Source of the DNA: a virus
Lineage: Duplodnaviria > Heunggongvirae > Uroviricota > Caudoviricetes
Length of the DNA stretch: 6,220 bases
IMG/VR virus record: IMGVR_UViG_2534681978_000015
Strand: one strand, 5' to 3'
Part shown: one piece after another, positions 2,975 through 4,928 of the stretch
Layout of the letters: each line of letters starts with the position of its first letter
How positions within the stretch are numbered: the first letter of the stretch is position 1
Program-made: the position numbers and the translations under genes
Notes under the pieces: model-generated
The model's database searches: none
What the model was told of the DNA's origin: nothing
Seen by the model: the letters and a program-made list of their open reading frames with translations, nothing else

Positions 2975-3071
2975 TTCAACGGCATACTGATTCTCGCCTT
3001 TCTTCACTACGGACGGTTTCAGGCCGGTGGCGCTGGCATTGCGGAAAACGTCGCTCCCCAGAGCACTTTTT

Positions 3072-4928
3072 TCATCCCGTGAAATAACGGTTGTCCGGAC
3101 GCACCTTTTCAATGCGTTCTGCTGGTCTGGACGCACCACTCTCGTTAATTTCAATACGAACTTCATCCGGATCGCGGAACCGCACCGTCGGGTAAATACT
3201 CCCGTCGCCATCATCCGCATTTTCCGGCTGTGGCTGTGCCTCCGGTCTGGCCTCCCGCTGAGGGCGAAGCACATCACGTATTGCCTGTAACTGCTGCTCT
3301 TCAGTATCAGTACGCCCTTCCTTCTGGCTGAGTTTTCGGTATTCCTCAAGCAGTTCAGGGCGCGGCTTCGCCTTCAGCTCATCCATCACCGCCTGTCGCT
3401 TCGCCTGTTCATCCAGTTCATTCAACAGCTGGCTGGCGGCTTCCCGGCGATGAACGGCAGACGTGTCTCCCTCATGTGCCATATCCGCATCAGCATACTG
3501 TTCCAGAAGCTGCTCGCGATTCATCCCCTGCATAGATTCACGATGCTGTGCCACCGGATCAACCGGTTCGGGTTGCGGAGCCGATTCGTCCTGAGGAACG
3601 CTTTCAGCCTCACGCATGGCTGCTTCATCTGCCGCCTGACGTTTTCCACGATATCCGGCAGCCGCACCGAATGGTGCCCCCATTGCAGCACCAAGGGCTG
3701 CACCTTCGATCGTTGCGTCAGCCACGCCCTCCCACGGTGACACATCCATTCCGGCGGTCTCACGCAATGCCGTGTTTTCCTGATAGCGTGAATAGCCACC
3801 CTGCGCCGCATTAATCGTCCCCTGTTCCGTGGCATTTCTGACAATGCCGCTTTTAACGGTCTTCGCCGTGCCCCGCATCGCCAGATTAAGCAACTGAGCA
3901 TCGCCCAGTTTTGCCGCCATGGCATTCACAGCCAGCAATTCAGGATCGGTTGCCAGCTGCGCACGCACCTCATCGGCAACACGCTCTTTTGCCAGATCCA
4001 TTTTCTGGCGATCAGTAAGCTGCGCGTGCTGCGGATCGGCATCAATGGACAAAAACGTCTGCTGAAATTTCGGTGACTGCGCCAGCTCAGAATAATCAGC
4101 ATTAAGAACAGCATCTGCCGCCGCCATTGCACTCCGCCCCTGCGCACTGACAGTGGAATGGGTGATCAGGCCCGCCTGGAAAAAATCCGGCATTTTTTTA
4201 TCGACAGCTTCGGCTGCCAGTGCCGTGGCTCTTTCCGGCTGCATCCCTACCGCGATGTATTTTTTCTCCAGCCCGGCGGTCAGCACTTTTCGCAGAGTGA
4301 CATCACCCACCTTTCTAGCCACACCGCCAGCAACCATATCAGGTACAAGCGCACCAATCAGGTTTACACCCTTCGCCACCCAGACCGCAGAATCATTATA
4401 GCCTTCGGTCATCGGCGTATTCAGCGCACGAACTGCACCCGGCGACATCTTACCGGTCAGCCATTCATCAGTGGCTTTGGCACCATCACTGACAGCCTTA
4501 CCGGTTGCCTTCAGACCTTTACCGACAGTATCAGTAACCGCGTTTTTGCCATCAGGCAGGGTATCGATGACCTCATCAGCCCCCCTGCTGCCACCGGCAA
4601 AAATATCCTGCACAGTTGCGACACCCGGCAGCCCCATACGGCTAAACTCATTTAAAATACGCGCCCCTGTTTTTACCGGGCTCTGAATCATCGCATCACC
4701 GAGTCCACGGGCCATTTCCCCTGTTCCCCGGACGGACTGGGCGAAACCTTTACCCATTGTTGGCAATACATCGCCCAGGCTGAACGACGTACTGTTATCC
4801 TTCCAGCGATTCGGATCAGAGAAAAATGCTTCATAGCTGTCAGTTTCGCCGGGTTGCTGAATGTTCAGGCTGTTACGATTCTGGTTACCGAGTTGCGCCT
4901 CAGGACGCTGTTCCTCTGAATAGGCCAT
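3072..4928 (-). CDS. 618-aa Ala/Gly/Gln-rich protein with a (GxxxG)4 glycine-zipper hydrophobic segment and a charged helical C-terminus; candidate membrane-inserting ejection/internal-virion or tape-measure-like protein
   Basis: ORF track 3072..4967 (631 aa). I place the start at the second ATG (4926-4928, MAYSEEQ...) because a GGAG sits 5 nt upstream (plus-strand ctcc 4934-4937), whereas the first ATG (4965-4967) abuts a terminator-like hairpin and has no SD. Stop is TGA at 3072-3074. No cysteine after the proposed start. Confidence 0.85.
   Translation of the reverse strand: MAYSEEQRPEAQLGNQNRNSLNIQQPGETDSYEAFFSDPNRWKDNSTSFSLGDVLPTMGKGFAQSVRGTGEMARGLGDAMIQSPVKTGARILNEFSRMGLPGVATVQDIFAGGSRGADEVIDTLPDGKNAVTDTVGKGLKATGKAVSDGAKATDEWLTGKMSPGAVRALNTPMTEGYNDSAVWVAKGVNLIGALVPDMVAGGVARKVGDVTLRKVLTAGLEKKYIAVGMQPERATALAAEAVDKKMPDFFQAGLITHSTVSAQGRSAMAAADAVLNADYSELAQSPKFQQTFLSIDADPQHAQLTDRQKMDLAKERVADEVRAQLATDPELLAVNAMAAKLGDAQLLNLAMRGTAKTVKSGIVRNATEQGTINAAQGGYSRYQENTALRETAGMDVSPWEGVADATIEGAALGAAMGAPFGAAAGYRGKRQAADEAAMREAESVPQDESAPQPEPVDPVAQHRESMQGMNREQLLEQYADADMAHEGDTSAVHRREAASQLLNELDEQAKRQAVMDELKAKPRPELLEEYRKLSQKEGRTDTEEQQLQAIRDVLRPQREARPEAQPQPENADDGDGSIYPTVRFRDPDEVRIEINESGASRPAERIEKVRPDNRYFTG
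3661..3714 (-). other. Glycine-zipper segment GAALGAAMGAPFGAAAGY inside gene B
   Basis: Hand translation of 3661..3714 gives Gly at every fourth residue across five positions, embedded in an Ala-rich hydrophobic stretch and flanked by charged residues. Confidence 0.7.

Follow-up and report, generated by a model that had tools for sequence, protein, structure and literature searches.

The window analysed here, a 6,220-nucleotide (nt) stretch of virus DNA (IMG/VR record IMGVR_UViG_2534681978_000015), was presented in a preliminary description as carrying two adjoining genes, 'gene B' and 'gene C', that meet in different frames on its minus strand. We find that a single giant gene, already known from short-tailed Shiga-toxin (Stx) phages, has been read here as two, gene B being one half of it and gene C the other, and that the two-frame layout is the symptom of a single-base insertion within this gene, an extra G in the run at 3076-3078; no two genes meet at the site, and it is not a recoding site. 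Most likely the insertion is a sequencing artefact, or else an ordinary inactivating mutation of a prophage. An annotation that took the window at face value would give two genes, or a recoding site, in place of one known essential gene. Both the site and the giant gene are read on the minus strand, and the codons and motifs below are written in that direction.

One giant gene across the site

At the site the minus strand reads ...CGT TAT TTC ACG GGA TGA AAA AAG TGC TCT GGG.... Here, the TGA at 3074-3072 is the stop of a 631-codon open reading frame (ORF; 3072..4967) and shares two bases with an ATG at 3075-3073, which opens a dead-end frame of 18 codons (MKKVLWGATFSAMPAPPA*). The long frame of gene C lies one base off from that of the ATG. 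From 3076 it remains open for 1,025 codons to window position 1 and is protein-like, reading DEKSALGSDVFRNASATGLKP..., and 5′ of 3076 the same frame is Arg/Cys-rich junk. An A6 run (T6 on the plus strand) lies at 3072-3067, and a GTG at 3007 and an ATG at 2974 are in frame with gene C. On all of these points the preliminary description was accurate: the overlap of stop and start, the early end of the ATG frame, the offset of the gene C frame, the junk upstream of the gene B stop, the protein-like codons downstream of it, and the positions of the A6 run, the GTG and the ATG. Its reading of the site as a junction of two genes does not hold, because the relatives carry one continuous gene of ~2,790 amino acids (aa).

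The window matches the late region of Sepvirinae, short-tailed Shiga-toxin phages and prophages (Stx2-converting phage 86, Oslovirus and Traversvirus), at 97-98.6% DNA identity; the matches lie in 186 phage records and in 425 complete E. coli genomes out of 5,426. Eighteen relatives, comprising five annotated records and 13 IMG/VR contigs, were fetched for comparison. In the relatives, gene B and gene C form a single ORF of about 2,780-2,810 aa. A single coding sequence (CDS) spans the site in Stx2-86 gp35 (YP_794082.1, 'LPD5 domain-containing protein'; 8,352 nt), in WP_000331702.1 from an O111:H8 chromosome ('LPD38 domain-containing protein'; 8,352 nt) and in Lyz12581Vzw gp37 (8,400 nt), and an uninterrupted ORF of about 2,780-2,810 codons is found in the loci L001, L002, L004, L005, L010 and L012. 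In the window as given this ORF is broken by the extra G at 3076-3078; removal of one G yields a stop-free ORF of 1,642 codons that begins with the ATG at 4928 and stays open as far as the window end. Profile comparison gave the same picture. Gene B matches positions 1-617 and gene C positions 618-1652 of PHROG 616 (phrog_616, profile length 2,793; both E = 0), and the two matches abut without gap or overlap. Among the 18 loci, the 186 phage records and the 425 genomes, no orthologue was found in which a stop at this place is followed by a second gene with its own Shine-Dalgarno sequence.

The giant gene starts at the ATG at 4928 (MAYSEEQ...), which matches the start in Stx2-86 gp35 and WP_000331702.1 and has the Shine-Dalgarno sequence GGAG seven bases upstream. 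The ATG at 4967, from which the longest ORF is counted, is not the real start, as the relatives begin at the equivalent of 4928. None of the three candidate starts around the site (ATG 3075, GTG 3007 and ATG 2974) has a Shine-Dalgarno sequence, and gene C lacks an independent start. The preliminary description had proposed that an insertion or deletion (indel) sets the start of gene C; in all relatives, gene B and gene C are simply continuous. The 34 codons that precede the ATG at 2974 look protein-like because they are conserved coding sequence inside the giant gene. Their amino acids are conserved in all 18 relatives, and in the gene C frame the codon differences among variant classes are synonymous in nine cases and non-synonymous in three.

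Alignment and a scan of the loci located the lesion itself. The junction reads CACGGGATGA in the window and CACGGATGA in 18/18 fetched relatives, and the extra G is the only internal indel over 6.1 kilobases (kb) when the window is compared with its two nearest relatives (98.6% and 98.3% identity). In the frame of the relatives the codons are ACG GAT GAA AAA AGT (T-D-E-K-S), whereas the extra G makes the window read ACG GGA TGA. The insertion of a single G thus accounts for three peculiarities together: the early stop, the overlap in ATGA and the frame offset of one base. The preliminary description had suspected a homopolymer indel, whether error or mutation, and was right about the kind of event; it had placed the event in the A6 run, with A7 as the state to look for in orthologues, and had kept the two-gene model. 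Seventeen of the 18 relatives have A6 here and one (L002) has GAGAAAAG, a result that excludes a 'missing A' and led us to reject A7.

Recoding and coupling at the frame change

Slippage-dependent expression and ATGA coupling had also been put forward for gene C. A designed arrangement of this kind would rely on a −1 slip on the A6 run in the frame opened by ATG 3075, or on a +1 shift at GGA-TGA or reinitiation after gene B. The A-rich run beside a stop and the ATGA overlap do resemble known sites, and low-level spontaneous slippage of tRNA-Lys on A runs occurs in E. coli. The likeness to the −1 site of dnaX (A AAA AAG) and the +1 site of prfB is nevertheless superficial, consisting of an A6G string and a stop at the frame change; unlike those sites, this one has no in-phase heptamer, no structure, no rightly spaced internal Shine-Dalgarno sequence and no conserved layout. 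In the frame of gene B the A run comes after the stop, and in the frame of the ATG the heptamer is G-AAA-AAA, with no X XXY YYZ in phase. Inspection of the codons indicates that a +1 shift from GGA to GAU would give no re-pairing. In the 77 nt downstream no stimulatory structure was found, the minimum free energy being −17.5 kcal/mol against −22.1 kcal/mol for shuffles (z = +1.5). A programmed −1 site of the dnaX type was rejected for want of an in-phase heptamer, of a hairpin or pseudoknot, and of conservation: the two-frame layout is confined to the window, and the site is in frame in 18/18 loci and in the 104 complete genomes that have this variant of the junction.

Translational coupling through the ATGA was likewise rejected. 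As in known stop-start coupling, the TGA and the ATG share two bases, but here the frame opened by the ATG dies after 18 codons and is not that of the downstream gene. The ATG at 3075 has no usable Shine-Dalgarno sequence. The tetranucleotide ATGA itself is present in the window at chance frequency (48 observed versus 55 expected), and it lies inside the intact ORF of every relative as G-GAT-GAA (Asp-Glu). We therefore regard designed recoding or coupling at this site as extremely improbable, and the missing conservation effectively refutes it.

Origin of the extra G

The right end of the window carries a copy of CCTATCCCCTGTGTGCCTTGGCAGTCTCAG, which has been identified as the 454 Lib-L adaptor B (PMC4482049), and beyond it homopolymer-rich junk for which no match was found in E. 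coli genomes (Table 1). Since this adaptor was left untrimmed and contains a homopolymer miscall of its own, the window is the end of a 454 pyrosequencing contig. The untrimmed adaptor also warns that homopolymers in the contig are error-prone and that its end is contaminated. At 6117-6126, the final 10 adaptor bases (GCAGTCTCAG) are at the same time genuine phage sequence (the relatives read ...TTTGCGCAGTCTCAGTTTGAAC), a chance identity that probably caused trimming or assembly to fail and the contig to end at this point.

Miscalls of homopolymer length by a single base are the characteristic and dominant error of 454 sequencing. On balance we infer that the extra G is such an error rather than a real mutation: it is probably a homopolymer overcall in the 454 assembly, in which case the true DNA would read GG and the gene would be intact. 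An overcall in pyrosequencing would turn GG into GGG at 3076-3078 and ACG GAT GAA AAA AGT into ACG GGA TGA, a single step that would produce the stop, the overlap and the offset at once.

The distribution of the GGG allele is consistent with this. By megablast, a 38-mer with GGG was found in none of the 5,426 complete E. coli genomes, whereas the control 37-mer with GG was found in 104 of them, in frame in every case. An exact-pattern search of IMG/VR viral contigs gave 0 matches for GGG versus 13 for GG, and a GGG 25-mer searched as an exact pattern was absent from metagenome contigs and from the GTDB representative genomes. At the protein level, neither the 618-aa nor the 631-aa version of the shortened product has an exact match on record. 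The GGG allele is thus private to the window. Single-base indels also occur in other draft-derived copies of the same giant gene, to whose damage the extra G may be likened: the IMG/VR locus L009 (2531839640_000012) has two G5-to-G4 deletions and the locus L017 (2695420569_000033) a 1-nt deletion.

Several observations nevertheless weigh against an overcall and bear on the chief alternative, a genuine private frameshift. The affected run is short, two G read as three. All of the longer homopolymers in the window (88/88 runs of 4-7 bases) match the nearest relatives in length, so the consensus is otherwise good where 454 sequencing errs most. At least four private substitutions lie at 4249-4644; the window is therefore no clone of any sampled sequence but a distinct lineage, in which a real private indel is plausible. 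Moreover, with its 8.4 kb the gene is a large target for mutation, and real breaks in it do occur in some relatives, for example an insertion of ~2.7 kb in phage GER2. A genuine frameshift would leave an N-terminal fragment of 617 residues, with the other ~2,170 residues made scarcely or not at all, and because the Sp5 orthologue is essential for plaques and lysogenisation, a prophage carrying it would be defective for infectious particles; deletion mutants of Sp5 ORF80 give neither plaques nor lysogens (PMC5155283). This alternative is a real possibility, though we hold it to be the less probable one: the allele is in no other sequence of any collection searched, the 1,025 codons downstream show no secondary decay, and the contig derives from 454 data with poorly trimmed ends, for which indels of just this type are the dominant error. 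If the G is real, the window represents another defective Stx-type prophage, with no infectious particles and a truncated homologue of ORF80.

The private substitutions belong to a cluster of six at 4249-4644 that are unseen in the 18 fetched loci. At least four of the six occur in no complete E. coli genome, and the best match over 4200-4700 is 99.2%. This stretch is probably a small mosaic patch derived from an unsampled variant. Mosaicism is also evident on a larger scale, as the identity to GER2 is 99.7% at the junction and about 90% overall, and that to L014 is 99.4% over 4.4 kb. The insertion in GER2 (locus L003) lies within the giant gene at 8468-11165, and no CDS is annotated there for the gene.

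Many E. coli genomes carry two to three diverged copies of the giant gene, for example O104:H4 strains and NCCP15648. The collapse of such copies into a chimeric consensus with a spurious base was considered, given that there are up to three places per genome for the gene and that the window is mosaic whichever relative it is set against (identity 99.4% with L014 over part of its length, 98.6% with the best relative overall). However, mosaicism is normal in these phages, and every known copy reads GG, so that mixed copies could not yield GGG. On this ground the collapsed-repeat chimera was rejected, and we give it next to no probability.

It is also conceivable, though very unlikely, that the phage works despite a genuine extra G, with a 617-residue N-terminal module and a remainder of ~2,170 residues made as two polypeptides. 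The second polypeptide would then have to arise by reinitiation (GTG 3007 or ATG 2974) or from a low level of +1 shifting at GGA-TGA. If this were true, the giant ejection protein would tolerate a split at the low-complexity linker just upstream (…PQREARPEAQPQPENADDGDG…).

The giant protein and its known relatives

The identity of the giant gene is already given by orthology at the DNA level: it is the same gene as Stx2-86 gp35, Sp5 ORF80 and phi24B gp47, and the family comprises the giant polyvalent, or 'ejection', proteins that are packaged in the virions of short-tailed Stx phages (Sepvirinae). Sp5 ORF80 (ECs1242) has 2,793 aa, and its deletion leaves tail-less heads (PMC5155283). Virions of phi24B contain gp47 (2,811 aa), for which a role as an encapsidated ejection protein has been proposed (bioRxiv 10.64898/2026.04.10.717836). 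In the window, the gene C part encodes an LPD5 domain at about 1358-1789 (Pfam E 4.4e-44) and an LPD1 domain at about 638-877 (Pfam E 2.4e-23), in the same order as in the intact relative. The intact WP_000331702.1 carries LPD5, LPD1, MuF_C and LPD38; the 3′ ~1,140 codons of the giant gene, with the region of MuF_C and LPD38, lie beyond window position 1. Between LPD5 and LPD1, at 1094-1108, the protein contains an HEWFH motif (HExxH, zincin-like), in a segment outside every Pfam model.

In the window and in the annotated relatives alike, the giant gene lies directly 3′ of the gp34/phrog_601 gene of the late region. By its position, this upstream gene (gene A) would be the counterpart of Sp5 ORF79. 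Because the contig stops short, ~45 codons are missing from its 5′ end. The ORF listed for it (378 aa, 4998-6134) starts at a GTG within the adaptor, and Stx2-86 gp34 has 421 aa.

Table 1. Coordinates of the features in the window
Feature	Position	Strand	Remarks
GGG run with one extra G	3076..3078	−	GG in relatives; the actual lesion
ATGA	3072..3075	−	TGA put in frame by the extra G, plus ATG; from ancestral GAT GAA (Asp-Glu)
A6 run	3067..3072	−	same length in 17/18 relatives; GAGAAAAG in L002
5′ part of giant gene ('gene B')	3072..4928	−	codons 1-616, Gly codon made by the shift, premature TGA; phrog_616 1-617
Continuation of giant gene ('gene C')	1..3076	−	runs past window edge; phrog_616 618-1652
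~34 codons from premature stop to first in-frame ATG	2972..3075	−	internal coding sequence of giant gene
454 Lib-L adaptor B	6117..6145	−	29/30 bases of CCTATCCCCTGTGTGCCTTGGCAGTCTCAG; CCCC read as CCC
Homopolymer-rich junk, untrimmed read tail	6146..6220	−	A8/T11/G11/C7/T9
Upstream gene A, Stx2-86 gp34 homologue	4998..6126	−	phrog_601 positions 46-434 of 443; synteny

Set beside known cases of 454 homopolymer errors and adaptor carry-over, the window shares the change in mononucleotide length and the contig that ends in a miscalled Lib-L adaptor B; it differs from the usual homopolymer error in that the affected run is short (2 to 3) and the longer runs are all correct. With Sp5 ORF80, phi24B gp47 and Stx2-86 gp35 it shares the gene itself, the synteny 3′ of the gp34 homologue and the LPD5 and LPD1 domains, but unlike in those members of the family the frame of the window copy is broken after codon 616 by the extra G. 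To the polyvalent proteins encoded by phages and conjugative elements (Iyer et al, 2017; PMC5512222) the window contributes neither a new domain nor a new architecture, and its giant gene falls in with what is known of them: giant, multidomain proteins of the LPD type that are packaged and delivered with the DNA.
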